Below the pieces are notes generated by a model that saw nothing but the letters and a program-made list of their open reading frames with translations, was not told the DNA's origin and ran no database searches. A stretch of DNA of 64,000 bases from Candidatus Babeliales bacterium (lineage in GTDB: Bacteria > Babelota > Babeliae > Babelales > JACPOV01), in contig JBAVOR010000016.1 of NCBI GenBank assembly GCA_049692255.1, positions 7,006-71,005 of the forward strand, in the 5' to 3' direction. Shown piece after piece: positions 2-44,500 of the stretch. Both the position numbers and the translations under genes were made by a program. Each line of letters begins with the position of its first letter. The first letter of the stretch is position 1.

Positions 2-1390
2 GTATATCGTGTTACCAGCCACACTAAGCATGTGGGTCCTGGTACAACGTTTGTAGCGGTTAAGGGCATGAAGCAAGATGGTATAGATTTTATTGGTGAA
101 GCGCTCAATCTGGGCGCTTCTTCCATTGTTATACAGGAAGCAGTGCAGTTGTCTGATGCAACGATGAGCGCTCTTGAGCGAGCAGGTGCACAGCTCGTGC
201 GTGTAACGGACACGCGTCTGGCGTTGGCACAATTGAGTGCACAGGCGTACGGTAACCCGGCACAGCAACTAACTATTATTGGAGTAACGGGTACAAAGGG
301 TAAATCGACCACCTGCTTTTTAATAGAACAGATATTACGCACTGCAGGTTATGCGACTGCGCTTATTAGCTCTGTACGTAACGCGATTGGTACTACCTAT
401 TTTGAAACCCATCTCACCACACCGCAACCCGACTTTATTCAAATGTTTTTGGCACAGTGCGTGCAAGCAGGAGTGACCCATGTGGTTATAGAAGTGGCAG
501 CGCAGGCACTCACGCTCCATCGCGTCCATGGCATTACTTTTGATAGCGTACTATTTACGAATTTTGATCAAGAGCATCTGGAATTTTATGCATCCATGGA
601 TGATTATTTTGTAGCAAAAGAACAGCTGATGTCACGCGTTAAAGCAGGTGGTATTGCCTGGGTTAACGGAGATGATACGCGCTGTGCAATGCTTAAAAAT
701 AACTATGCGCATGTGCGTACGTATGGCGTAACAGCGGGTGTTGATGTGCTCGTTCGCATGCAATCGCGTGATACGGGTGCGCAGGTACACGAAGGTGACG
801 CTTGTTGGCAATCGCCTGCATTGCTCGGGTTATTTAATGGGTATAATATGACGGCAGCGTTGTGTGTTGCCCGTTCGTTAGATATCCCTGATGCGGTTAT
901 ACACAATGCATTTCATACGTTCACCGGTGTGCCGGGAAGGGTCGAACGATATTCATTGCCCAATGGTGCTATTGCGTGCATAGACAAAGCGCATAATCCA
1001 TCATCGTTTCATGCTATCTTGAGCACGTTGCGTGGAATAACTTCTCATTTAATTGTTATCTTTGGTGCCGGCGGCGAACGCGATAAATCAAAACGGCCGC
1101 TCATGGGAGCCATTGCTGCATCGTTTGGCGATCTCGTATTTATTACCACTGATGACCCGCGCTCTGAAGATCCTGCAACTATTATACAAGAGATTTATGC
1201 AGGAATTGAACCGGCATTACAGGCACGAGTGGTATGTGAGGTTGACCGTGAGATTGCAATTCGCGCAGCGTATGCAGCATCAAAGCCAGGCACCATTATT
1301 GCGCTCTTGGGCAAAGGGGTAGATGAATATCAGTTGATCCAAGGCATTAAGCAACCGTTTAGCGAGCGTGCTATTTTAGCTTCGCTTTAG
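2..1390 (+). CDS. murE: UDP-N-acetylmuramoyl-L-alanyl-D-glutamate--2,6-diaminopimelate ligase (MurE), 5'-truncated at window edge
   Basis: Mur ligase P-loop 'GVTGTKGKSTT'. C-terminal 'DDPRSEDP' matches the MurE DNPR motif. The ORF is open to the window start. Confidence 0.8.
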   Translation, partial: VYRVTSHTKHVGPGTTFVAVKGMKQDGIDFIGEALNLGASSIVIQEAVQLSDATMSALERAGAQLVRVTDTRLALAQLSAQAYGNPAQQLTIIGVTGTKGKSTTCFLIEQILRTAGYATALISSVRNAIGTTYFETHLTTPQPDFIQMFLAQCVQAGVTHVVIEVAAQALTLHRVHGITFDSVLFTNFDQEHLEFYASMDDYFVAKEQLMSRVKAGGIAWVNGDDTRCAMLKNNYAHVRTYGVTAGVDVLVRMQSRDTGAQVHEGDACWQSPALLGLFNGYNMTAALCVARSLDIPDAVIHNAFHTFTGVPGRVERYSLPNGAIACIDKAHNPSSFHAILSTLRGITSHLIVIFGAGGERDKSKRPLMGAIAASFGDLVFITTDDPRSEDPATIIQEIYAGIEPALQARVVCEVDREIAIRAAYAASKPGTIIALLGKGVDEYQLIQGIKQPFSERAILASL

Positions 1391-2994
1391 TTAACCTGCT
1401 TATACGATTTTTTATACACTGCGGCACTCGCTTCAGGGTCATACTCCTCACTCCAATCTGATTTATATGAAACATATATTTTTTTGTTTAGTATCTCGAG
1501 TTTCCAATCTTTTTCAAAGATAGTGCCAACAGTCAATCGTGCATACGTATCAAAGTCGAAGGGGTCTAGGCTGTGGCCGTATGGTGTATCGGGGCATACG
1601 TTGAGCGTGACAACCATGCCATTCCACGGTTTCTCTGTACCAACAGCAGGCGTACTTTTGTGACGCCATAATTGTACAGTGCCCGGGGTTAGCTGTGTGT
1701 CTGTCATGAGATCCATCATTGCATTATCACCATGTTGATGGGCACGGAATATGCCTACAACTGTATAGCTACCTGGCAGAGAGAAGCGCCATGCGGAAGT
1801 GCTCAAAGCGCCAAAAGTCCACCCTCTATTCTCGACATAGGCAATTGACTTGGCAGGATCAACTATAAAATCATTCCACATGAAACCCATTTCACGGGGT
1901 GATAATGGTTTTTTATTAGTAAACAGTGCATCCGAACTAACCTGCTGAGAATCTGTATATTGTTGCTTTAGTTGTACTATGGCATCTGGATCGTGAGAGA
2001 TTGCTTTGAGCATCTTTTCCCAGCCTTTTCCCTGCTCTAATGTTTCAATCAGTTCAAATCCAATTAAATCTGTTTTTAATGAGAAAAGTTGTGCAGGGTT
2101 ATACCCGATTTCGATGCCACCATGGCAGCACTGAATAAATTCATTTGGGTTTTTCTGTGACCCTACAAATAACACAGCAGGTAATAATTCGTACCAATTG
2201 CATATGTGACTAAAAAGATCAGGAGCAAGTTCGCCGAATTTCTCTTTTACTTCTTGCATGAATCCATAATGAATATTGATATACAAATCTTCATGGTTAC
2301 CACGCACCAAGACACATTGTGTAGGGTTGGCAGCTTTTAAGCGCAGGATAGAATACAGTACTTCAGCGCCATATAAACCGCGGTCAGTATAGTCACCTAA
2401 AAAGAGAATATAATGGTCAGGCTTAATAATAGTAAAATCTGATCTGATAATCCCTTGCTGCAATAACTCTTTTAAAAAATAACGCACAGACCGCATATCG
2501 CCATGCAGATCGCCATGCATGAGTAATGTAGTTTGCGGTGGCAATACCAGCTTTTGCGTATATGGTTGAAATGGGCGGTTAGGGTTTTGTAGATATGGCT
2601 TATCAAGTGATTTTGTGCCTACCCACTGCTTTTTGTCGAGTAAATAGGTGCTCATTGTTTTTTCACAGGCATCAATCCCGTTCATTAACTCTTGCGCAGT
2701 AAAATCTTTTGCTGTTAGAGTCCCTTCTTGTGACTTATGCCAAGAAGGCAACTCGTCGCATGCATCAATCCATTGCTCAACTGTTTTATAATGAAATTGC
2801 CCAGTTTTTTGCGGTGTTGTTATTGGCGGTGCCGTTTTTTTCGGTGGTGCAATAAATGCATTCTGCAAAGCAGCGAGCGCTTTTTGATAGCCCGTTAATG
2901 CTGCTTCCAACGGGTAACAGTGCTGCGTGTATAGCAGCGCAACAAGCATAAGAGATCTGCTCGTTATTGATACTTTATTTTTCATTCGATTCAC
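1387..2994 (-). CDS. PPP-family (calcineurin-like) Ser/Thr protein phosphatase with N-terminal signal peptide
   Basis: Canonical PPP motifs in order: GDLHGD, GDYTDRG, GNHE. Hydrophobic N-terminus 'SLMLVALLY'. 535 aa. Confidence 0.7.
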   Translation of the reverse strand: MNRMKNKVSITSRSLMLVALLYTQHCYPLEAALTGYQKALAALQNAFIAPPKKTAPPITTPQKTGQFHYKTVEQWIDACDELPSWHKSQEGTLTAKDFTAQELMNGIDACEKTMSTYLLDKKQWVGTKSLDKPYLQNPNRPFQPYTQKLVLPPQTTLLMHGDLHGDMRSVRYFLKELLQQGIIRSDFTIIKPDHYILFLGDYTDRGLYGAEVLYSILRLKAANPTQCVLVRGNHEDLYINIHYGFMQEVKEKFGELAPDLFSHICNWYELLPAVLFVGSQKNPNEFIQCCHGGIEIGYNPAQLFSLKTDLIGFELIETLEQGKGWEKMLKAISHDPDAIVQLKQQYTDSQQVSSDALFTNKKPLSPREMGFMWNDFIVDPAKSIAYVENRGWTFGALSTSAWRFSLPGSYTVVGIFRAHQHGDNAMMDLMTDTQLTPGTVQLWRHKSTPAVGTEKPWNGMVVTLNVCPDTPYGHSLDPFDFDTYARLTVGTIFEKDWKLEILNKKIYVSYKSDWSEEYDPEASAAVYKKSYKQVN

Positions 2995-3121
2995 TTTCTT
3001 TATCTTTTTTTAAAAAGAGTGATCTAGAGGGCATATCTTTACAAAAAACCTATTTTTAATACAGTAATATAATTATACGGCCCCTGAGCGGGTCAAGTAC
3101 AGAGTTTAAGGAGTTTTTATT

Positions 3122-5095
3122 ATGACTATGCAGTATATGCTGATTTTCGGCACTGCCGTGTGTGGAATACTCTTTTTGCTATTTTTATTTAGAAGAATAA
3201 CGCACACGCGTATCGATGATGAGCGTGTGTTAACTATCGGAAACGCAATTGATGCAGGAGCGGTTACTTTTTTGCGTGAAGAATATACCATCATTGCGCT
3301 GGTAATAGGAGTAGTGGCTATACTTTTGTGGTATGCGCTCTGTGCTCATGCTGCGATTATCTGCTTGGCAGGTGCATGTTGTTCTTTGCTAACCGGGTAC
3401 ATTGGTATGCGTGCAGCAACGCGCGCCAACATGCGTACTGCAATAGCTGCAAAAAATGAAGGAGAATACGCAGCATTTATGCTTGCGTTGTACGGTGGCG
3501 GAGTGATGGGTGTTTCAGTTGCAACCATTGGTATGTTCGGATTGGGGGTAACAACCTATTATGTTTTTGGCTCGCCGCAGATGGGACAGCTATTGGTGGC
3601 CTTTAGTTTAGGTGCCAGCATCGTTGCTTTTTTTGTGCGCATTGGTGGTGGTATTTATACTAAATCAGCAGACGTGGGGGCTGACTTGGTAGGCAAAGTG
3701 GAGACCGGCATTCCTGAAGATGACCCTCGTAACCCAGCAGTAATTGCCGATAACGTGGGTGATTGTGTGGGTGATACAGCGGGCATGGGAGCTGATATGT
3801 ATGAATCGTACATTGGGGCCATGGTCTCTGCTATGATCTTGGCAAAAGATCATGCGCTCTACAGCATGAGTGCATGTTTTTTATTGCCATTAATGTTGGC
3901 AGCAATTGGGCTGATGAGCTCTCTCAGCGCTCTCTTTGTAAGTTCGCATATGCGTACTAATCCGGCATGCATGTTACGGCACGCAACGTATGGCGCGCTG
4001 TTTATATTTGGATTGCTAACCACTTTGTACGTATATTCTTTGCAGTTACCAACTCATCTATTGATTTCTATTATTGCCGGCTGTTGTGCGGGTATGTTGA
4101 TCGGTCTTATCACTGAATATTACACGGCAGGAACGGCGGTAGAGCGTGTAGCAGAAAGTGCTCGTTGTGGCGCCGCAACCAATGTTATGTATGGCTTGTC
4201 CGTTGGCATGGAATCAACTGCATTACCCGTGTTGGTGTTACTTGCAGCGGTGCTGATAGCGCATACCTACGGTGGTGGACCATTTGGTGTAGCGTTAGCA
4301 GCGGTGGCAATGCTTGCAACGGTAGGTATTACTATGACTGTTGACGCCTATGGCCCTATTGTTGATAACGCAGCTGGTATTGCACAAATGGCTGGGTTTG
4401 GCGAGACGGCACGTATGGTGACCGATAAATTAGATGCGTTAGGTAATACGACCGCTGCTATTGGTAAGGGATTTGCGGTCGGTTCAGCACTATTAACTGC
4501 GCTCGCATTATTTACCGCGTACGCGCAAGAAGCGGCAATACACAGTTTAAATATGTTAGATCCGTTAGTGATGGTAGGTATATTTATTGGAGCGTGTGTG
4601 CCCTTTGTGGTTGCTGCATGTACCATGCGTTCGGTCAGCAAAGCAGCGTTGCACATGGTTATGGAAGTACGCCGTCAGTTTCAACAGATTCCCGGTCTTA
4701 TGGAAGGCACTGCGCTGCCCGATTATACACAATGCATAGCCATTAGTACGCGTGCAGCATTGCACGAGATGTTGCTGCCTGGATGCATTACGCTCAGCGT
4801 TCCCGTATTGGTGTTTTACACACTGGGTGTGGCATCGCTCGGTGGCCTTTTGATTGGCGCTATTGTGTCTGGTGTTATGCTCGCGCTTATGATGGCTAAC
4901 GCTGGTGGCGTGTGGGACAATGCTAAAAAATATATTGAAGCAGGTAATCTAGGCGGTAAGGGGTCTGAAACGTACAAAGCAGCAATGATTGGTGACATGA
5001 TCGGGGATCCGTTTAAAGATGCGTCTGGTCCATCACTCAATATTTTAATTAAACTAATGGCAGTAATTGCGTTGTTATTAGTAACGAAAAGTTGA
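3122..5095 (+). CDS. hppA: Membrane-bound proton-translocating pyrophosphatase (H+-PPase)
   Basis: Motifs '[19 protein letters not shown]', 'DNVGDCVGD' and '[23 protein letters not shown]'. Polytopic membrane protein. AAGGAG Shine-Dalgarno 8 nt upstream. Confidence 0.9.
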   Translation: [657 protein letters not shown]

Positions 5096-5311: not shown

Positions 5312-6322
5312 TTATCTCCCAACAAACGATTTAAATTTAGAACGTAAGAGCGGTATGCCGTGGCCACCGCCGCGGACTCTATCAACTTCTTTACCATTTT
5401 TCATTAACACGGCACAGGGATAGCCTGTTACTTGTAGCTTGTGCACTAATGATTTAAAATGATCGCCATTCACGTTTACAAAAAACACGCCAGAGAATTC
5501 TTGCGCCATTTGTGTATATTTTGGTTTCATGCCAGGGCACATGCCGCACCACGGTGTTGAAAAAAGAAGCGCTACATGTGAATGTTCTTTGTATATTCCG
5601 TTCAATTCTTGCTCGCTACCCAGCTCTATCATATTCGATGCAGCCGAACCCATGTTTCTTTTTGGCTTTGATGTTCCTGCAGGGCGTGCGGCGGGAGGAC
5701 ATGCACTGCCTGCTGGTTGTGGCCGCATGTGAGGGCGTTGTGGATGTGCAGCCGATTGTGCTGGCTTTGCATGCGGCATTGGTTGAGGCTGAGCAACCAT
5801 TTTTGGCGCCTGTGCCAGGTGTGGGTTTACTTTTTCTGCTACTGCAGGTGTTGGTTGTACTCCTTTTCTGATTGCATTCAAGCGCGCGTTAAATGCGTCT
5901 TCGCTGGCAAACCCTGCCATCTTGGTTTGTCCGTCATGAGCTAATTGAGTGCCGTTGCCATCAAAAAATAGAAAAGTAGGATACGCATTTATGTCATATT
6001 TACTTTTTAGTGTGCCGATATTTTTGGTGCCATTAACGTTGAGAGACAAAAATATAACGTCAGGGTTTTTTTGTGCGAGACTTTCTACTTTGGGGTGCGC
6101 TGTAGTGCAATGACCACAGCCTGGAATCATAAAGAATCCAAGCACGTACGGTTTTCCTGGGGTAATGTAATTATTTATTTCAGTCGCATCGCGTACTTCA
6201 ATCAACGTACCTGCTGATTGTTCTTGCGTATTACGCCCTCTGCCTGCATGGGCTTCTGGGGTAATGGTACATAAACTTCCCGCCATAAAGACGAGAACAG
6301 AAAGTGAGCAGTGAGTAACCAT
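5312..6322 (-). CDS. Secreted tandem-thioredoxin (PDI-like) thiol:disulfide oxidoreductase
   Basis: Signal peptide. Two thioredoxin-fold domains with CGHC and CGMC active sites, separated by a Pro/Ala-rich linker. Confidence 0.7.
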   Translation of the reverse strand: MVTHCSLSVLVFMAGSLCTITPEAHAGRGRNTQEQSAGTLIEVRDATEINNYITPGKPYVLGFFMIPGCGHCTTAHPKVESLAQKNPDVIFLSLNVNGTKNIGTLKSKYDINAYPTFLFFDGNGTQLAHDGQTKMAGFASEDAFNARLNAIRKGVQPTPAVAEKVNPHLAQAPKMVAQPQPMPHAKPAQSAAHPQRPHMRPQPAGSACPPAARPAGTSKPKRNMGSAASNMIELGSEQELNGIYKEHSHVALLFSTPWCGMCPGMKPKYTQMAQEFSGVFFVNVNGDHFKSLVHKLQVTGYPCAVLMKNGKEVDRVRGGGHGIPLLRSKFKSFVGR

Positions 6323-12765: not shown

Positions 12766-14304
12766 TTATGCAACAACGCTATTATTAATTGCCTTGAGTT
12801 GTTCATTGTATATGTGGTTGAGCTGGACAATAAACTGGTTTCCTTCGTCTTTTGGTATTGTATTACTATGGCGTTTAATGTATAGTTCTATAGTTTTAAA
12901 AAGTTCCTTGAGTTTTTGCTCATTCTTTATTTCTACCGCATCAAGAGCAAACGAATCAAGCGCGCCATTAATGCTATCTTTATTATCTGTATACTCTTGG
13001 TCATACGTTTCGAATGATTTTCGCTTGTTCGTATGATTACATAATTCAGGAATAATAAAATTGAGTGGTTTCGATTGTGTAGCTATAGCATTACAGTTGT
13101 TTATAAACTCTTCTGTTTTTGTTTGATCGATATCAAAATGAAGAACATTAATGTCATTATTGCTCGAATTCGTCCAGTTATTTGAACCAAATCCGAGCAC
13201 ATGATGACTATTATTTTTTGTTATTCGCGCAAACCCTTTAATATGATTCGATTGCGCAAATTTTCCTGTTTTATGCGCTTCATCATAATTAAATACTGAG
13301 ACAGGAACCCCTTTTTTATACAGTGCTACTAAAAACTCTTGTGTCGGTTGTTTTTTTAAGGCGTCCTTGTCTACCGTAACTAATTTGAGTATTTTCTTGT
13401 TTGCCAATTGAAGCGCTGCCTCTTTCGTATCGCGATCATCCCAACTGTACATATTAATGTAACAAGAGTCCCCTTCTTGGCAGTTTTTTATAATAGTAGC
13501 AATCGATTTGTTTAAGTTATAGTTCAGCGAAGAAATAATGGTCTTTCCAGGAGGAGTGTGTTGAAGAACGGTGTTTTTGGTGCCATATTGAATAATAGTT
13601 TCTTGTTTTACGTTTGCATGTATGTCAGAAACCGCTTCAAACAAGTTTTTAACAAATTCATATGTTGCTTGCTCTACTGCATATTCGGCCATTTCGCGAT
13701 TGGCCATGTTGGTTATATTTTGTGATCCACTATACGCACGATATTGTCGTTTTTGATTAGCATCGACATAACTCCACGCCATTGTTTTGGTGTGTAATTT
13801 TTGCGCATATCCATTATTTTTTAGTAACTGTTGTTCATTATAAAATTGTATAGGTACAGCTGTACAATCGAGTTTTGCGTAGCGCATTGCAGTCAATACA
13901 GCATTTTTTTGTGATGCGCAACAGAAGAGATTGATGTTGACTCCTTCTGTATGTTTTTTAGCGAGTGTTGTAAGGAATTCAGTGTTGGTAATCAGAAAAT
14001 ATAACCCATAAAAATTGTCCCCCTTTTTCATTTTTTCAATAGATTGTGCAGCAAGAATTAATGCTCGATTGTTATCTTGTGCTGGATAAGAGATAGTAGC
14101 TATCCGTGGCGTGATTTGCCAGTCATAAGGGGGTAGAGTAACGGCTGCGGCCTGGTTTTTTTCAAGCTCTGCCTCTTGTGCTTCGAATGCACAGAACTGA
14201 TCTGTTATTTGAGATTCCATAGAGTAACTGTGACTATGCACGATAATAGTAAGAAATGCTACGATATGCCCTCTATGCACTAAAGTGCGATCCCTAAAAT
14301 ACAT
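12766..14304 (-). CDS. Hypothetical protein with weak, degenerate PLD/HKD-like 'HxK...GSxN' motifs
   Basis: 512 aa ORF. Two 'H-x-K ... G-S-x-N' stretches ('HTK...GSQN' and 'HIK...GSNN') with non-canonical spacing. True start may be the internal Met at ~14220. Confidence 0.45.
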   Translation of the reverse strand: MYFRDRTLVHRGHIVAFLTIIVHSHSYSMESQITDQFCAFEAQEAELEKNQAAAVTLPPYDWQITPRIATISYPAQDNNRALILAAQSIEKMKKGDNFYGLYFLITNTEFLTTLAKKHTEGVNINLFCCASQKNAVLTAMRYAKLDCTAVPIQFYNEQQLLKNNGYAQKLHTKTMAWSYVDANQKRQYRAYSGSQNITNMANREMAEYAVEQATYEFVKNLFEAVSDIHANVKQETIIQYGTKNTVLQHTPPGKTIISSLNYNLNKSIATIIKNCQEGDSCYINMYSWDDRDTKEAALQLANKKILKLVTVDKDALKKQPTQEFLVALYKKGVPVSVFNYDEAHKTGKFAQSNHIKGFARITKNNSHHVLGFGSNNWTNSSNNDINVLHFDIDQTKTEEFINNCNAIATQSKPLNFIIPELCNHTNKRKSFETYDQEYTDNKDSINGALDSFALDAVEIKNEQKLKELFKTIELYIKRHSNTIPKDEGNQFIVQLNHIYNEQLKAINNSVVA

Positions 14305-15358: not shown

Positions 15359-16672
15359 TTATGAAATAGTGGTGGCCAGTGCGCTGAGTTTTTGGGTTAG
15401 CTGGGTAAGAGATTCGGTAAGCACGTTTGTTGAAGAACGGGGATTGCGGATCGGTTTCTCTGGCAACAGGGCCTCCTGACGCTTATAGATAAAGAAATAG
15501 CCGGTGGGACCGGTTGGCGAGCCGTTAATTTCAGTAATTGCATCAGCAGAAAGTTCTGTGCCTACACGGGTAATGGTGCTATCATCACACCGGTACCAAA
15601 CCTGTTCTTTTTTAACATAGGCCCAGTAATGACCCCCAGACAGACCGCCTCCTTGGACCACCACGCTACTTAATGCATAGTGTGATGCTGCTTTACTACT
15701 CGTTGATGCTAATGCAGGATGCAGGGGGCGGACCCACGGTGACACATCAAGCTCCAAAGGAATAGCGATGGCGTGATTCACTTTTTGACGGGCAAGAGCG
15801 GTATAGGTGTAACGGTTCACATTAATACAAAGATAGGGAGGTGTGGTTAAAAAAAATAATTGTTTGATACAATCAGTGCGCACGTGGCCGCTGTTATCTT
15901 TGTATGCATCGAGTAGTTCCGGTTTGAAATATACTGCTAAGCACGAAGCAAGATCGGTGAGCGGTGTTTGTTGCGCGTCCAAAGCGGGCACGGTAAGAAC
16001 GCCAGGGCCATTTTCTGCCGTATCAGTTTCTAGCAATGGGGTGGTTGGTGCCTCATGAGCAGGGCAAGAAATGCGCGATACATAGATATTATGAAACAAC
16101 TGTTTAATACGCGTCTGTTGTATTTTCTGTTGCAGCAATACTGATTGGGGATTTTGTTTTAACTGTTCTTGCAATTGAGCAAGCGCACTATTGAGTACCA
16201 CTGCTTCTTTGTCGGTTATCGCGTGGCTAGTGCAACTATCTAAAAAACGGATAATAAATTCTCCCGCATCTTGTTGCGAACATACTTGGGCCTCAAAGAA
16301 TTCATTGTATGCACTGTCGCCTAACTTTTTGAGAGGGCCTTGCGTACAAGAAAATGTATGGGTGCCATCCAGATACTGTTGCACCAGTTGCGTAAAATAA
16401 TGTGCAGTAGGGTTAGTTGCCAGAGGAAACAGGGTTGATGCATTAGATCCGTACAAAATAGAAGTGAACGCCGGAATGTTGAGAAGTGCTTGCACTGATG
16501 CATTTAAAAAGCAGGTGTTGCCGCAGTTAAGCAAAGCGGGTGGTGTTGCGTTGTTGTGCGCGTTCATTAACAAGAATATGGTACTAATAATACGCAACAC
16601 CTGCGATACGTTATTATTTCTCATGCAGTACCCTGTCAGGCGCATGCATGTTTCTATTTTTATGCCAGGCAT
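15359..16672 (-). CDS. Eukaryote-like ubiquitin-specific protease (USP/UCH, peptidase C19) deubiquitinase
   Basis: Cys box 'LLNCGNTCFLNASVQALL'. His box 'GGHYWAYVKKE'. Asp box 'WYRCDDSTITRV'. Confidence 0.8.
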   Translation of the reverse strand: MPGIKIETCMRLTGYCMRNNNVSQVLRIISTIFLLMNAHNNATPPALLNCGNTCFLNASVQALLNIPAFTSILYGSNASTLFPLATNPTAHYFTQLVQQYLDGTHTFSCTQGPLKKLGDSAYNEFFEAQVCSQQDAGEFIIRFLDSCTSHAITDKEAVVLNSALAQLQEQLKQNPQSVLLQQKIQQTRIKQLFHNIYVSRISCPAHEAPTTPLLETDTAENGPGVLTVPALDAQQTPLTDLASCLAVYFKPELLDAYKDNSGHVRTDCIKQLFFLTTPPYLCINVNRYTYTALARQKVNHAIAIPLELDVSPWVRPLHPALASTSSKAASHYALSSVVVQGGGLSGGHYWAYVKKEQVWYRCDDSTITRVGTELSADAITEINGSPTGPTGYFFIYKRQEALLPEKPIRNPRSSTNVLTESLTQLTQKLSALATTIS

Positions 16673-35441: not shown

Positions 35442-35596
35442 AATTTGAACTAAAAACGTATTTGATTATAAGAAATAATTTCGCTGCAAAAAAAAGCAAA
35501 AAAACTATTGTATAAGTATGCTTGCATTTTTTAAAAGGATTTGATTTTATCAATCTAATTGATTGTGTCCTGATATCTAAAAAAAGGTTGAGTGAT

Positions 35597-38500
35597 ATGT
35601 ATGGATTAACTATTTTTCTGGCGATGTTATTTTCTTCTTTTGCTTCTCTTGACGCTACTCTGCAAACAAGACGTTTTCATAATATTCTGGTTGGAAATAA
35701 TACCACTACAAATTATCTCAATGTTTTAAGACAAGTATTTATTGATGGGGATCTTTTTGTAAAGGGAACCATTAATGGTTCAGGGGGAAATTCAGGATTT
35801 ATTCAAGCAGTGCCAGGAGCGACGATTAATGCGGTACCACGGTTTGCTAATGCCAATGGTTCACAGCTCGCTAATTCTTCTGTTTTAATCGATAATGCGG
35901 GCAACGTCACGTTAAATGGTATTACTAAAAATGGTATTACTGTTGCATGGCCATCAACTGCTGGTGCTGCGGGCACGTTTTTAGCGAATGATGGTGCGGG
36001 TAATTTAGTATATGCTACCCCTGCTGGTGCAGGTAACGTATCAACAGCATTAAATTTTACCACTAACAATGCATTAACGCGTGTTGATCTACCCAGTGGA
36101 GTAAATAATATTCAACAATCGGTGGTGACGCTTGATAATAGCGGCAACATTGCCGGGGTGAATCAATTAGTAGCAGGAACTTTTTTTGGTTCTTTGCAAG
36201 GTAATGCGGCCAGTGCTACTAATTTTACTGGGTCATTAGCGGGTGATGTGAGTGGTACACAAACTGCTACTGTTGTCAATTCGGTAGGCGGTCAGTCTGC
36301 TGCTGCTGTGGCAAATGCTGCATTCGCAGTTACGAATGCAACGCCAAACAGTGTGCCGAACACGCTGGTTGAACGTGATGCATCACGTAACTTTAGTGCG
36401 GGTACTATTACGGCCAGCTTAATGGGCGCTGCATCATTAAATGTGCTAAAAAGTGGCGATACCATGACAGGCCCTTTGGTAATGGGGACGCAGACAGCAG
36501 TTCGTCTACAAGATGCGGGTGGTACGAACTATGTGGGGTTGAATGCACCCAGCAGTGTAACTAGTAGTTATACCATGAGCATGCCGGGCACAGCACCGGT
36601 CTCTGGGCAATTTTTACAAGCCTCTGCAGCCAATGCATTGCAGTGGGCAGACATTGGGGGTTTACCATCGACTGGTCGTACTATTTATGTATCAAAAGAT
36701 GGCAGTGATAGTAACGATGGTTCGCTTTCTGCTCCTTTTTTAACCGTTGCACATGCGTTACTAGTCGCTAATACGCTTTCAACAATTTCTAATCCTGTGG
36801 TGGTGCAAGTCGGCGCCGGTGCGTTTATAGAAAACAACTCTGGTGGCGCTTTGGCTATTACAGCAGATGGCATCACGCTTAAAGGTGGTTCAAACCAAGC
36901 AACCATTATTGCACCAACAACGTTATCGATTAACTTATTTAATGTGACAACTCCGAATGTATTATTCAGGGATATTAATCTCAACGCTGGTGTGAGTGGG
37001 TCTACGGCAGCTGCTATTAATATTAATGTGGGGGTCACGGGATTCGGCGGTGGTTGTACTAACGTAAACATTGCACAGTTCCAAACAGGTATTGCACTTA
37101 ACAATTCCAACAGCACTCCTCCCATATTTGTTATCAATTCTGTCAATGCGCAAGGCAATGGTACCGCTGTAGCGGTCAGTAATTACCGTCTTATTATGCA
37201 AAGTTCATCAATATTGGGCCCTTATCTTTCGAGCATTATTCAAAATACCGGCATTTCATTAACGGGTATTAATACGTTGGCAACCATAGATTCATGTGTG
37301 TTTAGATTGTTATTGAACGGCATTACGGTAGCTGGCGGTGCCCCTTTGCGCATTACTGGCAGCCAATTTATTAATATGCAAAACGGCATAGTGTGTTCAG
37401 GAGGGGGTAATGCAGACGTTGTTGGTTGTAATTTCCTGGTGAATACTACTAGTTCAATCAATGTCTCTGCATCAGGAGCTGGCACAACAGTAATAATTGA
37501 TGGTGCAATTTTTAATTGTGTTGATGCTACCAACACGCCGCAGGGAACTGCTGTGCAAGTAACAACGGGTGGATCATTAACGGTGAACTCATCCACTATT
37601 TCAGGTGCAGCACTTGGCATGCAAGCTGGCGCAGCAGGAGATACGAGTACGACAACACTGTTGTCTGTTGGTACCGATATTATTGGTTGTACCGCTGACT
37701 TTACTCAAGCAGGTACATCAACATTCAGATTTGTCGGCGGAGTATTTGATTCTAATTTGGTCACTATTGCCAACGGCACGAATGTCCATCTTTCTCTATT
37801 TGACAGAACCTCTGGCGAAGCATTAACGATTGGTAACAGCACAGATACGAGCCAAGTATTGTACCGCGCATTCAATGGTGAAGCATCATTACCTTTTACC
37901 TCGTATGAGCCAAACTATTATGGCTCTAAAGGGCTTCTTTTCCAAAATCCCAATGCAGATGCAACATTCAGTGGTGTGCAGGCAGCCAGTAATGATGCAA
38001 ACTATTATGTCGTTACCGGCAGCAATACGAATCAAGCGGGCATTAATTTAATTTCTGATACATTAAATATTGGGACTTCTGACTTTGTGCGTGGCTGGAA
38101 TATCAGCAAATTAGGCACATCAGGTAATTTAACGTTCAACTATTCAAATAATGACACTGGTGGCCAAGCAGCGCGCGGCAGCAACCCAGTGATGCAACTG
38201 GATGGCTTTAATAATCAGGTGTTATTTCCCGCGGCAATCAACTCGCCGCTACCGACAAACACCGTGGCTAAATTGGTCTGGAATGGTGATACCGATTTAT
38301 ATCGTGGTGCTGCAGGCACGCTGCAAACAGATGGTAATTTAATTGTTGGCGGTTTAACACCAAACACCGCTGTGACTACTAATGGCAGCGATCAATTAAC
38401 ATCGAGCGTAACCACTGCAACGGAACTGGGCTATGTGTCTGGCGTTACTTCTGCTATACAACCACAGATTAATAATAAAGTTTCAAAAACGGGTGACACG

Positions 38501-41500
38501 ATGACCGGGCCATTGATAATGGCAACACAAACCCCCATTCGTTTTCAAGATGCGGGAGGTGTTAACTATGCAGCTCTCAATGCACCAACTGCAGTAAGCA
38601 GTAGTTATACAGTCAGCTTGCCAACAGCGGCGCCGGCAGCAGCGCAATTTTTACAAGCAGCAACTCCGACAACATTGCAATGGGCAAGTATTGGGGGGGT
38701 GCCCAATGTGAGTCGTACCATCTACGTAGCACAGGGGGGTAATGATAGTAACGATGGCTCATTATCTGCCCCATTTGCTACAATTGCGCATGCGGTGGCA
38801 GTAGCTAATACGTTATCAACATTAACCAATCCGGTGGTGGTTCAAGTTGGTGCTGGCACCTTTATTGAAAATAATTCAGGTGGAGCAATTGCCATCACTG
38901 CAGATGGTATTACCATTAATGGCAGCTCTATTACGGGGACCATTGTAGTACCAAATACGATTTCTAATGCATTATTTAATGTAACAACACCGAACGTACT
39001 CTTTTCTAATATCTATCTCGATGCGGGAACTACGGGATCAACAGCAGCGGGTATTAACGTGAACACCAGTACTACTGGTGAAGGTGGCTGTCATGATATT
39101 GTGCTTTCGCGTTTCCAAACTGGCCTAGCTATCAATAATTCAAATGTAAGCAGCTCCCCTATATTTATTATTAGTTCAATCGAAACGCAAGGGAACAGCA
39201 CTGCTATTGCGGTCAATAATTACCGCGCTATTATTCAAGGTTCTTCATTCTTAGGGCCATTTGTTGCAGGGGCCATTGCGAATACCGGTATTGCATTGAC
39301 GGGAACTCAGACATTAGCAACCTTACTCGCTAACTCATTTCGATTGTTAAGTACTGGCATTACTATCACTGGTGGTGCAGATATGCGTATTACAGGCAGC
39401 AACTTTGATAACATGCAAAATGGGGTAAGCTGTTCTGGTGGCAGTAATGCAGAAATAGTGGGATGCAATTTTATAATTAATGAAGCATCATCGGTGAACA
39501 TATCGGCAGCGGGAGCTGGAACGAATGTTATAGTCAATGGTTGTATTATCGATTGTGCCGATGTGACTGATGCACAGCAAGGAACAGCAGTACAATCGAC
39601 AACCGGTGCAATATTGGTTGTTGGTGCATCAAATATTTCGGCAGCGGCTGTCGGTATCCAATGTGGCACCACGGGCGATACGAGTAGTACCATAGTTGCT
39701 GTATTTTCTACGAATCTGGTTGGTTGTATTAATGATATTACTCAAGTAGCTACAGCAAACCTTCAATTTGTAGGTGGTGTATTTGATTCCAACTTACTGA
39801 GCATTGCCAACAGTGCCAACGTAACCATTTCTGCATTTGATCGATTTTCTAATAATGCGTTAACAATTGGTAATAAAACTGATGTTAGTCAACCTCTTTA
39901 TAAAGTATTAAATGGTGAAGCCTCGTTACCATTTACCTCTTATGAACCAAACTATTATGGCAATAAAGGGCTTCTGTATCAAAACCCGAATGCTGACGCA
40001 ACATTTAATGGTGTGCAAGCGGCCAGCAATGATGCTAACTATTATGTCATTACCGGCAGCAATACCAACCAAGCAGGCATCAACTTAATTTCTGATACAT
40101 TAAATATTGGGACTTCTGATTTTGTGCGTGGTTGGAATATCAGTAAATTGGGTACGTCAGGTAATTTAACATTCAACTATTCAAATAATGACACTGGTGG
40201 CCAAGCAGCGCGTGGTAGCAATCCAGTGATGCAGCTTGATGGATTTAATAATCAAGTGTTATTTCCCGCGGCAATCAATTCACCGCTACCGACAAACACC
40301 GTGGCTAAATTGGTCTGGAATGGTGATACCGATTTATATCGTGGTGCGGCAGGCACGCTGCAAACAGATGGTAATTTAATTGTTGGCGGTTTAACACCAA
40401 ACACCGCTGTGACTACTAATGGCAGCGATCAATTAACATCAAGCGTAACCACTGCAACGGAAATTGGATTTGTTTCTGGCGTCACTTCTGCAATACAGAC
40501 CCAGCTTAATAGTAAATTTCCTGCATCGGGTGGTACATTGACCGGTCCGCTGACATTACCTGCAGGAACTGCAGCGGCGCCATCATTAAATTTTGCTGGA
40601 AGCACTACTACGGGCCTTTCTGCCGCAACGGCAAATACGTTATCCTTTGATACGAATGGTGTTGAACGAATGAAAATCGGAGCAACGGGGACGATAGCTA
40701 TTGATGGATTTACCACTGCGGGTGTAGTACATAATGACGCAAGTGGAAATTTGAGCAGTTCGTTAATTGTTGATGCAGATATTACTACTGGCACCATTAC
40801 CGATGATAAATTACAAACGATTACCACCGGCGGCAAAGTAGCAAACTCTGCTACCACTGCAACATCAGCAAATACACTCAGTACCATTGTCTTGCGTGAT
40901 GGGACTACTGGTGGTTTTAGTGCTGGTGCAATCAGCGCAACGAGCGTAACGGCATCAGCAAATCCTGGATTTTTTGGTAATTTATCGGGCAATGCGACAA
41001 GCGCAACTACTGCTGCATCTGCTACGAGCTTTACTGGTCCATTGCTCGGTGATGTGACCGGTACGCAAAGTGCAACGGTAGTATCAACCGTTGGTGGAGC
41101 TACTGCGGCTGCAGTAGCAACGGCTGCTAATGCAGTAGCCAATGCAACTAATCTGGCTACACCAAGCACCTTGGTATTGCGCGATAGTTCCGGTAATTTT
41201 AGCGGAGGAACTATTACTGCCACAACAGGCTTTTCAGGGAACTTGACGGGTAATGTGACTGGCAATGCCACAACGGCAACGAGCGCAAACACGGCTGGGT
41301 CAGCAACTAATTTTACTGGCTCATTGTCTGGTGATGTCACAGGAACACAGGGCGCAACGGTGGTGAGCTTTGTTGGAGGAAAATCGGCTGCATCAGTTGC
41401 CAATACCGTTACTACCGTGAATGCAGCAACAAGCAATAACACACCAAATACGCTTGTCTTACGTGACGGTAGTGGTAACTTTACTACTAATCAGATTACT

Positions 41501-44500
41501 ATTGCCGGTTCGGTAACAAATCCAACAGATACAGCAACCAAAGCATATGTTGATAGCGTCGCAGCAACCGGGTTAGAAGTGCATACCCCTGCAGTAGTAG
41601 TCAGTACCACTAATGTTGCACTCAGCGGGCTACAAACGATTGATGGCATAACACTAGTTGCTGGAAATCGTGTACTTTTGGTTGGCCAGACCAGTCAAGT
41701 GCAAAATGGGTTATGGGTAGCAGCATCAGGTTCATGGACACGACCAACCGATTTCGCAACGGGTACTGAGGCAGGCCAAGCATATGTGCTTATTTTAGAA
41801 GGTACTAATTTTGGCGGCTCAAGTTGGGTATGTACGACGTCCACAGCAATCATTGATACAGATCCAATTACTTTTGTTGAGTTTTCCCTACCATCACAAA
41901 CTACGGGGGCCAATTTAGGTTCTGGTACTGGTATTTTTGCTAACAAAACTGGCCAAACGCTTAACTTTAAAAGTTTGCTGGAAGGAACCCATGTTGTTAT
42001 AACCAATGATGCTAATACGGTAACACTGGCAACCGACGCAACGAGCGCAGACACCATCAGCACTATAGTAGCACGTGATGGTTCCGGTAATTTTAGTGCA
42101 GGTACTATTACCGCGAGTTTAATTGGTGCGGCATCATTAAACGTATTAAAAGCGGGTGATACCATGACAGGGCCATTAGTTATGGCTACCCAAACGCCAA
42201 TACGTTTTCAAGACGCTGGTGGCACAAACTATGCGGCATTACAGGCTCCAGCAGCGGTAAGTAGCAGTTATGCCGTTGCATTACCGACCGCTGCACCAAA
42301 TGCGGGGCAATATTTACAAGCACTTTCGTCTACTTCCTTACAATGGGCATCGGTCGGTGGTACACCAAACGTGAGTCGTACTATATACGTATCCCAAGAT
42401 GGAAGTGATAGTAATAATGGGTCATTCTCATCACCATTTTTAACTATTGCGCATGCAGTATCGGTTGCAAATAGTCTTTCGACATTAACTAATCCGGTAG
42501 TAATTCAAGTGGGTGCAGGGGTGTTTGTAGAAGATAACTCTGGCGGCGCTATTACTATTACGGCAGATGGCATTACTTTAAATGGTGCGTCTACGATCGG
42601 CACCATCGTAGTGCCAAACACCTTATCAAACACGCTGTTTAATGTTACATCGCCGAATGTGTTATTTTCTAATATCTATCTCGATGCGGGAACTACGGGA
42701 TCTACTGCAGCGGGCGTAACGATCAATACAAGTATCACCGGTGATGGTGGATTTTTAAATGTAGTTCTTTCTCGCTTCCAGACCGGTTTGTCAATTAATA
42801 ACTCAAATATAAGTAGTACGCCGATATTTATCGCTGATGGTATTGAAACGCAAGGCAATGGTACAGCTATCGCGGTAACCAATTACCGTGTTATTATTCA
42901 ATGTTCATCGTTCTTAGGGCCTTTTGGTAACGCAGGATCAATTCAAAATACTGGAATTGCATTGACTGGATCAAGCACATTAGCAACGATGTTGGCCTGC
43001 TCATTTCGTTTATTGAATACGGGTATTTCGGTAACAGGCGGAGCGGCCATGCGTACTACGGGAAATAATTTTGATAATATGCAAAATGGTATTGTCTGCT
43101 CTGGGGGCGGTGATGCGAATATTGTTGGTTGTAACTTTCTTGTTAATGAATCTTCTTCAGTGAACGTGTCTGTAGCGGGCGTTGGTACTGAAGCTATAGT
43201 TAGTAGTTGCATATTCGATTGCCCTGATGCAACTGATACGCCGCAAGGTACAGTGGTGCAAGCAACAACTGGTGCATCATTAACAGTTAATTCATCTACC
43301 ATAACGGGGGCCGTTGTTGGTATTCAATGTGGTACGACTGGAGATACCAGCAGTACTGTGGTTACGATAGATTCAACTGATTTGCAAGAATGCACTAATG
43401 ATATTATGCAAGTGGGTACGTCGACGCTTCGTTTTGTAGGTGGCGTATTTGATACGAATGCAATAAGTATTGCCGATGGTACCAATGTGCATATTTCTGC
43501 TTTTGATAGAACTTCTGGTGAAGCGTTAACGATTGGTAATAATACTGATGCGAGTCAAATGGTGTATCGTGTGCTCAATGGCCAAGCCGCATTACCTTTT
43601 GTATCGTATGAGCCCAACTATTATGGCAACAAAGGACTTTTATATGAAAACGCCAATGCAGATGCAACATTTAATGGTGTGCAAGCAGCAAGTAACGATG
43701 TGAGTTATTATTTAGTTACGGGCAATAACACGAATCAGGCGAGTATTAATTTAATTTCTGATACGGTCAATTTTGGCACTAGTGATTCGGTACGTGGCTG
43801 GAATATTAGTAAATTGGGTACATCTGCTAATTTGACCTTCAATTATTCGAACAATGACACCAGCGGACAAGCAGCACGCGGTAACAATCCGGTGATGCAA
43901 CTCGATGGATTTAATAATCAGGTTTTATTTCCGGCTGCTACCAATACCCCATTACCAACTAACACTGTAGCAAAATTAGTTTGGGCTGGTGATACGAATC
44001 TATATCGCACAGCTGCCAATACGCTGCAAACGGATGGTAATTTTATTATCGGTGGCAATCTCACTGTTGATGCTCTAACGTCTGGTGCAGTAAATCCAAA
44101 TACCGCTATAGTGACTAACGGAACTAATCAATTACTTTCCAGTGTTACCACGGCAACGGAAATTGGATTTGTTTCTGGCGTCACTTCGTCAATACAAACA
44201 CAGCTGAATAGTAAATTTCCTGCATCGGGTGGTACATTGACCGGTCCGCTGACATTACCTGCAGGAACTGCAGCGGCACCATCATTAAATTTTACGGGCA
44301 GCACTACTACGGGCCTTTCTGCTGCAACGGCAAATACGTTATCATTCGATACGAATGGTGTTGAAGCTATGAATATTAATGCAAGTGGGGTAGTGAGTAT
44401 TGATGCATTTACCACTGCAGGTGTAGTACATAACAATGCAAGTGGTAATTTGAGCAGCTCCCTTATTGTTGATGCAGACATTACTACTGGCACCATTACC

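Follow-up and report, generated by a model that had tools for sequence, protein, structure and literature searches.

The gene examined here lies on the minus strand of a 64,000-nucleotide (64 kb) stretch of contig JBAVOR010000016.1 from a Candidatus Babeliales bacterium, hereafter the window, and sequence comparison together with structure prediction leads us to regard its product as very probably an exported binuclear-metal phosphomonoesterase of the conventional phosphoprotein phosphatase (PPP) type, with an active site that appears intact. Both metal sites are present (D162, H164, D201, N233, H291, H419), as are the phosphate-binding arginines R205 and R390 and the general-acid histidine H234, and hydrolysis of phosphomonoesters by the standard binuclear-metal PPP mechanism is therefore expected. 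That the enzyme reaches a host through a type II secretion system (T2SS) or vesicles, and there dephosphorylates host phosphoproteins, is a tentative proposal to which we give somewhat less than even weight.

The catalytic assignment is grounded in motifs whose order and alignment both agree with PP1, and the likeness greatly exceeds what chance would give. The motifs GDxHG, GDxxDRG and GNHE, which an earlier note made from the DNA alone had read in canonical order, are all found (GDLHGD, GDYTDRG, GNHE), the gap between the first two being about 12 amino acids (aa) longer than in PP1, and they are invariant across 32 aligned homologues. Invariant in the same alignment are H291-G-G, R390 and H419 (within RAHQH); QCCHGG, GFMWNDF, R390-G, FRAHQH and [AGS]PD[ST]xYG form further invariant or near-invariant blocks, and conservation spans about residues 69 to 505. 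The Pfam Metallophos hidden Markov model is matched at E=2.6e-15, with a HMMER alignment that reached the N-terminal half only. Used as a single sequence, the protein matches BSU1, PP1, PP2A, rdgC, calcineurin and PP5 in the PDB at E=1e-13 to 1e-9, and with the family profile the matches to eukaryotic PPPs strengthen to E=1.7e-24. Profile-profile comparison by hhalign with human PP1alpha, the sequence of which was entered by hand, aligned residues 147-425 at a probability of 99.4 and set the motifs on catalytic residues: D162/H164 on D64/H66 of PP1alpha, D201 on D92, R205 on R96, N233/H234 on N124/H125, H291 on H173, WNDF on LLWSDP, R390 on R221 and H419 on H248.

The AlphaFold2 model built from the 32-sequence alignment (mean predicted local distance difference test, pLDDT, of 82.8, with >90 through the core; predicted template modelling score, pTM, of 0.82) contains the PP1-like alpha/beta-sandwich fold. 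In the fold ranking the highest scores belong to PP5 (29.3), PP1 (28.7), rdgC (28.2) and calcineurin (27.8), followed by the Shewanella cold-active protein tyrosine phosphatase (PTPase; 19.0), the PnkP phosphatase domain (15.7), lambda-PP (14.8), ApaH (13.8), RLPH2 (13.7), WipA (10.9), UshA (8.8), WipB (8.6) and purple acid phosphatase (8.3). PP5 and PP1 superpose over 286-291 residues at 2.7-2.9 Å, and Foldseek concurs. The elements beta8, beta9 and alpha9 of the C-terminal subdomain, which lambda-PP-like bacterial enzymes lack (PMC535813), are present in the phosphatase, and in combination with the fold ranking they assign it to the 'conventional' eukaryotic/archaeal PPP type. This speaks against the contrary outcome named in the earlier note, a nucleotidase or phosphodiesterase. 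More specific candidates were also rejected. The architecture of UshA/CpdB-type 5'-nucleotidases and cyclic phosphodiesterases (metallophosphoesterase followed by a C-terminal PF02872 domain) is absent, as are the motifs (GDxxY, GHxH) and the fold of purple acid phosphatases. Membership in the WipA/WipB family was dropped for lack of close similarity and of the N-terminal helical hairpin of WipA.

The model and the alignment revise the domain architecture that had been drawn from the DNA. The 'long non-catalytic C-terminal region' of the earlier note does not exist, for the PPP domain, interrupted by an insert, extends from about residue 70 to about residue 505 and only residues 506-535 are unconserved and, in the model, disordered; the misreading probably traces to the HMMER alignment having covered the N-terminal half alone. 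The excess length lies instead in an insert of ~75 aa (residues 296-369) and in ~145 N-terminal residues made up of signal, linker and a family-specific module. The insert, comprising two or three helices and highly variable among homologues in sequence and length, is a candidate specificity element. Within the N-terminal module (YKTVEQWIDACDELP) W75, L82, P83 and W124 are conserved, and pLDDT exceeds 90 across residues 69-146; residues 32-68 ahead of it have low model confidence and vary in length across the family. The beta12-beta13 loop reads VCPDTPYG here and [AGS]-P-D-[ST]-x-Y-G in the family consensus. Where eukaryotic and archaeal PPPs have SAPNY, bacterial PPPs have (I/L/V)D(S/T)G (Andreeva and Kutuzov, PMC535813). 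As a classical discriminator the loop is ambiguous in this family, having the Pro, the nearby Tyr and, in many members, the Ala in common with the former and the D-[ST] with the latter. The xPD(S/T)xYG loop is a hybrid of the two motifs and possibly an intermediate form.

Export is suggested by the N-terminus, the reading of which depends on the start codon. An ORF (open reading frame) of 535 codons is found on the minus strand at exactly the bounds given earlier, 1387..2994, opening with GTG 2994. Its length of 535 aa is correct for the ORF as a whole; the true start is likely ATG 2985, codon 4, giving a product of 532 aa. Of the three candidate starts within 2949..2994 (GTG 2994, ATG 2985, ATG 2949), ATG 2985 is favoured because the purine-rich AAAGAAAG, resembling a ribosome-binding site, precedes it and because homologues begin MKxK. 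The public gene call P0001 (identical sequence, 520 aa) begins at Met16, that is ATG 2949, whereby the charged n-region of the signal peptide would be lost. Read from ATG 2985, the signal is laid out as an n-region MKNKVSITSR with three positive charges, an h-region SLMLVALLY of 9 residues and a c-region TQHCYPLEA/A, in which A-x-A-like cleavage may occur at PLEA/A.

The N-terminal secretion signal claimed in the earlier note is thereby borne out, and it is not peculiar to this protein. By a heuristic that asks for an uncharged 8-residue window of mean Kyte-Doolittle hydropathy >=2.0 in the first ~40 residues, 182/199 (91%) full-length family members have a signal-like N-terminus, compared to 3/119 (3%) ribonucleotide reductase (RNR) controls, and several Verrucomicrobial members carry lipobox-like sequences, e.g., ...LSC(G/S)Q. 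Judged from these sequence features, export is a property of the whole family. By the positive-inside rule the catalytic domain lies beyond the cytoplasmic membrane with either a cleaved or an uncleaved signal. Directly after the signal, many Dependentiae members have an amphipathic LxxLxxxLxxL helix (residues 32-47, 2854..2901 in the window), and a similar stretch occurs at the C-terminal end of a ubiquitin-specific protease (USP) protein encoded at 15359..16672. The idea of a genome-wide sorting motif was dropped, the pattern not being enriched in the window's other ORFs, with the one USP instance.

The lineage of the bacterium and the spread of the family bear on what such an enzyme is for. 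The RNR alpha subunit of the window matches an NCBI protein from a 'Candidatus Babeliales bacterium' metagenome-assembled genome at 100% identity, its next relatives being Babeliales/Dependentiae. According to the literature, parasitism on protists is ancestral to Dependentiae and widespread in the phylum, and T2SS components are conserved, including two gspD copies (PMC4776705). Signal peptides are present on 44% of the proteins of Chromulinavorax, a cultured member, and putative effectors are reported to be enriched in that set (PMC6561590). A word-indexed search found >1,400 homologues of the phosphatase, the best 120 all at E<1e-61 with 32-45% identity over most of the length, and an exhaustive profile search found 1,393 representatives (50% clusters) at E<=1e-30, none of them with a functional name more specific than 'metallophosphoesterase' or 'serine/threonine protein phosphatase'. 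Among species-representative genomes, those with full-length relatives belong to Babeliales/Dependentiae, Verrucomicrobiota (Pedosphaera, Limisphaerales and others) and Planctomycetota (Pirellulaceae); archaeal PPPs gave half-domain matches only. The homologues from free-living Verrucomicrobiota and Planctomycetota are full length at 31-35% identity and have signal peptides or lipoboxes. In a rough neighbour-joining tree of trimmed sequences, calculated without support values and rooted on distant eukaryotic outgroups entered by hand, the sequences of the Planctomycetes-Verrucomicrobia-Chlamydiae (PVC) group form one compact clade nested among deep and diverse Dependentiae lineages, a placement that is suggestive only of the deepest family diversity residing in Dependentiae.

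The gene occupies a conserved chromosomal position. Its convergent neighbour is murE (32..1390, plus strand), and the stop codons overlap (TAG 1388-1390 of murE, TAA 1387-1389 of the phosphatase), so that the two genes are separated neither by spacer DNA nor by a terminator. On the other side the H+-pyrophosphatase (H+-PPase) gene diverges (3122..5095, plus strand), and a promoter-like TTGACC ... TATAAT/AATTAT at 3096..3069 on the minus strand, a consensus match only, lies in the shared intergenic region. The order H+-PPase, phosphatase, murE, Na-Ala symporter, ruvX and tsaB recurs in three genomes, one of which is the identical contig. Identity to the syntenic relative L086 is 72% for RNR alpha, 64% for H+-PPase, 52% for MurE, 39% for the phosphatase and 30% for an exported double thioredoxin, and the phosphatase has therefore diverged more quickly than the cytoplasmic proteins encoded beside it, in the manner of an exported protein. 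The double-thioredoxin protein itself (5312..6322, minus strand) has a Pro/Ala/Gln-rich linker between its domains and is syntenic with the phosphatase locus in L086. No functional operon partner was found in nine contexts examined, those in Babeliales reflecting lineage synteny only. In two Pedosphaera-like genomes hemB lies upstream of the homologue, and no informative neighbour (kinase, Pho genes, transporter) is common to the Verrucomicrobial and Dependentiae contexts examined.

Elsewhere in Dependentiae the family has taken more elaborate forms. Contigs of Dependentiae type carry tandem paralogues with differing N-terminal extensions (492+912, 675+462 and 430+580 aa). P0121 (1,564 aa) has two complete phosphatase domains, each preceded by a long Lys/Glu-rich coiled-coil-like region, and in both copies HGG is replaced by HGS. 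In P0130 (L087 3399..5615), encoded on a bacterial contig beside MacB/FtsX-type genes, a signal peptide is followed by a ubiquitin-family domain (Pfam E=2.2e-14), a linker and a PPP phosphatase. In a separate set of 10 homologues, one had a ubiquitin domain and the rest gave weak coiled-coil-like matches only. These features of Dependentiae-type contigs suggest family diversification. A tblastn search of the protein against the 64 kb window returned no paralogue.

According to the mechanism that we propose, the N-terminal signal, cleavable or anchoring, places the enzyme outside the cytoplasmic membrane as a single PP1/PP5-like alpha/beta-sandwich domain, the substrate choice of which may be tuned by the variable insert together with the family-specific N-terminal module; the enzyme would then leave the periplasm by T2SS or vesicles and act on host phosphoproteins, at phosphoserine/phosphothreonine or phosphotyrosine, as a Sec-dependent effector. 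The lifestyle of the lineage, whose members live as intracellular parasites of protists and have many host-directed proteins with signal peptides, the protein-phosphatase-type fold and the variable insert argue for the host-directed step, and so do the paralogue expansion, the ubiquitin fusion and the USP protein with a signal-like N-terminus in the window. Tandem paralogues, the two-domain P0121, the ubiquitin fusion, fast divergence and diversity within Dependentiae are traits typical of host-interaction genes, and they favour such a role for the family. The earlier note had put forward a secreted host effector, and this stays plausible from the evidence of family and lineage; the inference is weaker than it was stated because the signal peptide is family-wide and extends to free-living bacteria, because signal peptides are frequent in the background, and because the gene is a syntenic chromosomal one, inherited stably among housekeeping genes.

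Several observations count against host proteins as the targets. Close homologues that are exported, by signal peptide or lipobox, occur in free-living Verrucomicrobiota and Planctomycetota, and an exported PPP is therefore of use to bacteria that have no host. Little weight can be put on a signal peptide where ~44% of proteins bear one (PMC6561590). The phosphatase is a core gene that keeps its place between H+-PPase and murE in at least three related genomes, and not part of an island; it contains no eukaryote-targeting domain itself, and in 56 long homologues Pfam detected no domain except Metallophos. For passage across the outer membrane and for a host substrate the evidence is only circumstantial (lifestyle, T2SS, paralogues, ubiquitin fusion). 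The structure was predicted from an alignment of 32 sequences, signal peptides were called by a heuristic, and the tree has no support values and only distant outgroups entered by hand. A broader scenario, in which the family diversified in Dependentiae as T2SS/vesicle effectors, passed to free-living PVC bacteria by one lateral transfer and retained its loop as an evolutionary intermediate, appears to us rather unlikely.

The same observations lend substance to a role in the bacterial envelope or in scavenging, the leading alternative, which we consider a realistic possibility short of being probable. The protein would here act for the bacterium itself, as a phosphomonoesterase in the periplasm or attached to the cell surface, by releasing phosphate, by dephosphorylating peptides or metabolites before uptake, or by acting on an envelope component, in the same role as the lipoprotein and signal-peptide homologues of free-living Verrucomicrobiota/Planctomycetota. 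An export signal found throughout the family, free-living PVC bacteria included and in some with lipoboxes, fits this role, as do a locus that in Babeliales is kept in synteny with housekeeping genes and a single-domain enzyme with no host-targeting module. Dependentiae moreover rely on imported host metabolites (PMC4776705, PMC6561590), and bacterial PPPs are often of broad specificity (PMC535813). It is countered by contexts that, as far as examined, hold no Pho-regulon, transporter or suggestive neighbour, and by paralogues, coiled-coil and ubiquitin fusions and a high divergence in Dependentiae that would be unusual for a housekeeping hydrolase.

Whether the substrate is a protein at all must also be weighed. 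Nucleotides or dinucleoside polyphosphates (ApaH/PrpE-like), polynucleotide ends (PnkP-like) or a phosphodiester could be the target, with the likeness to PP1 reflecting no more than the shared metal centre. ApaH and PnkP are members of this superfamily too, and NCBIfam, which gave sub-threshold matches only and no family name, matched the Pnkp phosphatase domain at E=3.8e-4 and PrpE at E=0.12, each well short of its cut-off. The fold ranking disfavours a nucleotide or polynucleotide substrate, the C-terminal half of a conventional PPP is complete, including the elements missing in lambda-PP-like enzymes, WNDF and the equivalents of R221 and H248, and GDxxDRG is unmodified, unlike in ApaH-type enzymes (PMC535813); we thus hold a non-protein substrate to be improbable. 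Less probable still is a phosphatase of the bacterium's own signalling, held by an uncleaved membrane anchor and reversing Ser/Thr/Tyr phosphorylation by bacterial Hanks-type kinases, in the manner of Stp/PrpC with a PPP fold. An uncleaved anchor is compatible with the sequence, and bacterial PPPs such as PrpA/PrpB do act in the signalling of their own organism. The positively charged n-region, however, predicts an N-in/C-out orientation with the catalytic domain outside, beyond the reach of ATP-dependent kinases; the contexts examined hold no kinase gene next to the phosphatase, and homologues with a lipobox cannot face the cytoplasm.

Features of the phosphatase gene, its divergent intergenic region and related tandem loci. 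Positions refer to the window unless a contig is named.
Feature	Residues	Nucleotides	Strand	Basis or remark
Whole ORF		1387..2994	-	535 codons from GTG 2994; stop TAA at 1387-1389
Probable start and Sec-type signal peptide	4-31	2902..2985	-	sequence, homologue starts
Amphipathic helix (LTGYQKALAALQNAF) and Pro/Lys/Thr-rich linker	32-68	2791..2901	-	alignment, model
Family-specific N-terminal module (YKTVEQWIDACDELP) and N-terminal helices of the PPP domain	69-146	2557..2790	-	
PPP catalytic core, first half	147-295	2110..2556	-	GDLHGD, GDYTDRG, GNHE, CHGG
GDLHGD	161-166	2497-2514	-	coordinates script-checked
GDYTDRG	200-206	2377-2397	-	coordinates script-checked
GNHE	232-235	2290-2301	-	coordinates script-checked
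CHGG		2116-2127	-	in first half of PPP core
Family-typical insert between HGG and WNDF	296-369	1888..2109	-	alignment, model
PPP catalytic core, second half	370-505	1480..1887	-	GFMWNDF, ENRG, RAHQH, CPDTPYG
GFMWNDF		1867-1887	-	counterpart of PP1 LLWSDP
ENRG		1822-1833	-	counterpart of PP1 R221
RAHQH		1732-1746	-	counterpart of PP1 RAHQ, H248
CPDTPYG	467-473	1576-1596	-	at PP1 SAPNYCG position, beta12-beta13 loop
C-terminal tail, unconserved	506-535	1390..1479	-	pLDDT <50, short helix predicted
Divergent intergenic region		2995..3121	.	127 bp, common to phosphatase and H+-PPase genes
Tandem paralogue pair		L088 10001..14342		downstream of T2SS-ATPase, TamB and PLD-like genes
Tandem paralogue pair		L089 1011..4537		
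Tandem paralogue pair		L090 5660..9714		same murE-adjacent locus as the window gene

Of the window's ORFs that reach 150 aa or more, some two thirds have N-termini resembling signal peptides or transmembrane segments by a crude hydrophobicity rule, in agreement with the 44% reported for Chromulinavorax; they include a phospholipase D (PLD)-like protein (12766..14304) and, at 57264..60049, a series of small exported proteins. The 437-aa ORF of the USP protein (minus strand) contains a eukaryotic-type USP domain (Pfam UCH PF00443, E=4.6e-38) behind a hydrophobic, signal-peptide-like N-terminus and is a second candidate for a host-directed enzyme on this Babeliales contig. An ORF of 3,918 aa at 35522..47278 (plus strand), with a signal-like start, repeats rich in Gly/Asn/Thr/Ser/Ala (e.g., GNLTGNV) and no Pfam match, probably encodes a giant protein of the cell surface or of adhesin-like type. 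A search of the whole window with Rfam at gathering thresholds gave no RNA family.

PP1/PP2A/PP5-type PPPs are commonly seen as eukaryotic and archaeal regulators located in the cytoplasm or nucleus, and bacterial PPPs are usually of the shorter lambda-PP, ApaH or Shewanella types. The importance of the present family lies in a complete domain of the conventional type placed behind an export signal and conserved in ~1,400 clusters from Dependentiae and PVC bacteria, none of which is characterised. Both PPP phosphatases and bacterial phosphatase effectors are known kinds, and what is undescribed is an exported, insert-bearing subfamily of the conventional type: the literature, incompletely covered and so giving absence of evidence only, yielded no description of such a subfamily and nothing specific on the phosphatase family in Dependentiae, Verrucomicrobia or Planctomycetes. 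Should host proteins be the targets, the family would represent a class of Sec-dependent phosphatase effectors in Dependentiae, for which, to our knowledge, almost no effectors are known experimentally; its members are tractable candidates because Babela, Vermiphilus and Chromulinavorax are cultured. Should the role be in the envelope, the family would define a type of phosphatase new outside the cytoplasm, in bacteria abundant in soil and water. The hybrid motif of the loop bears on the divergence of SAPNY-type from bacterial-type PPPs.

Set against PP1, PP5, PP2A, calcineurin, PPEF/rdgC and BSU1, the Babeliales protein stands out by its bacterial origin and its Sec signal peptide, and the counterpart of the microcystin-reactive Cys of PP1 (C273) appears to be missing; it differs further from the eukaryotic PPPs in the family-specific N-terminal module YxTFxxWxxACxxLP, in a variable insert of 50-100 aa between HGG and the W-x-D motif, in the loop xPD(S/T)xYG where these have SAPNYCG, in an identity of only 16-23% and in having no known regulatory-subunit context. 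Archaeal PPPs of the PP1-arch type (Methanosarcina, Thermoproteota, Asgard) are of the same conventional branch and 30-37% identical in the N-terminal half (L042-L079), the part that alone was aligned by tblastn, and the matches give no sign of the insert or of the N-terminal module in them. The PPPs of giant viruses with protist hosts (Indivirus, CroV, Bodo saltans virus, Hyperionvirus) are of similar size (521-568 aa for three) and similar fold (Foldseek E 1e-17 to 1e-14, TM-score on the query up to 0.50, BFVD); compared by fold only and at 12-21% identity, they are no closer than the cellular eukaryotic PPPs. Those of Indivirus, Bodo saltans virus and a Megaviridae sample (521-568 aa) match the model as cellular PPPs do, at E ~1e-17 to 1e-15 and 12-16% identity. 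Among bacterial enzymes, the Shewanella cold-active PTPase and the Shewanella-like phosphatases (SLPs) score clearly below the eukaryotic PPPs in the fold ranking, and the SLPs have inserts between GNHE and H(A/G)G together with the (I/L/V)D(S/T)G motif (PMC535813), whereas in the Babeliales protein the insert follows HGG and the loop is a hybrid. The Shewanella enzyme and WipA illustrate that the fold can be Tyr-specific (PMC5454105). The Legionella Dot/Icm effectors WipA and WipB are host-directed bacterial phosphatases, built on the Ser/Thr-phosphatase fold with the same metal motifs as the enzyme described here (PMC5454105, PMC5572681).

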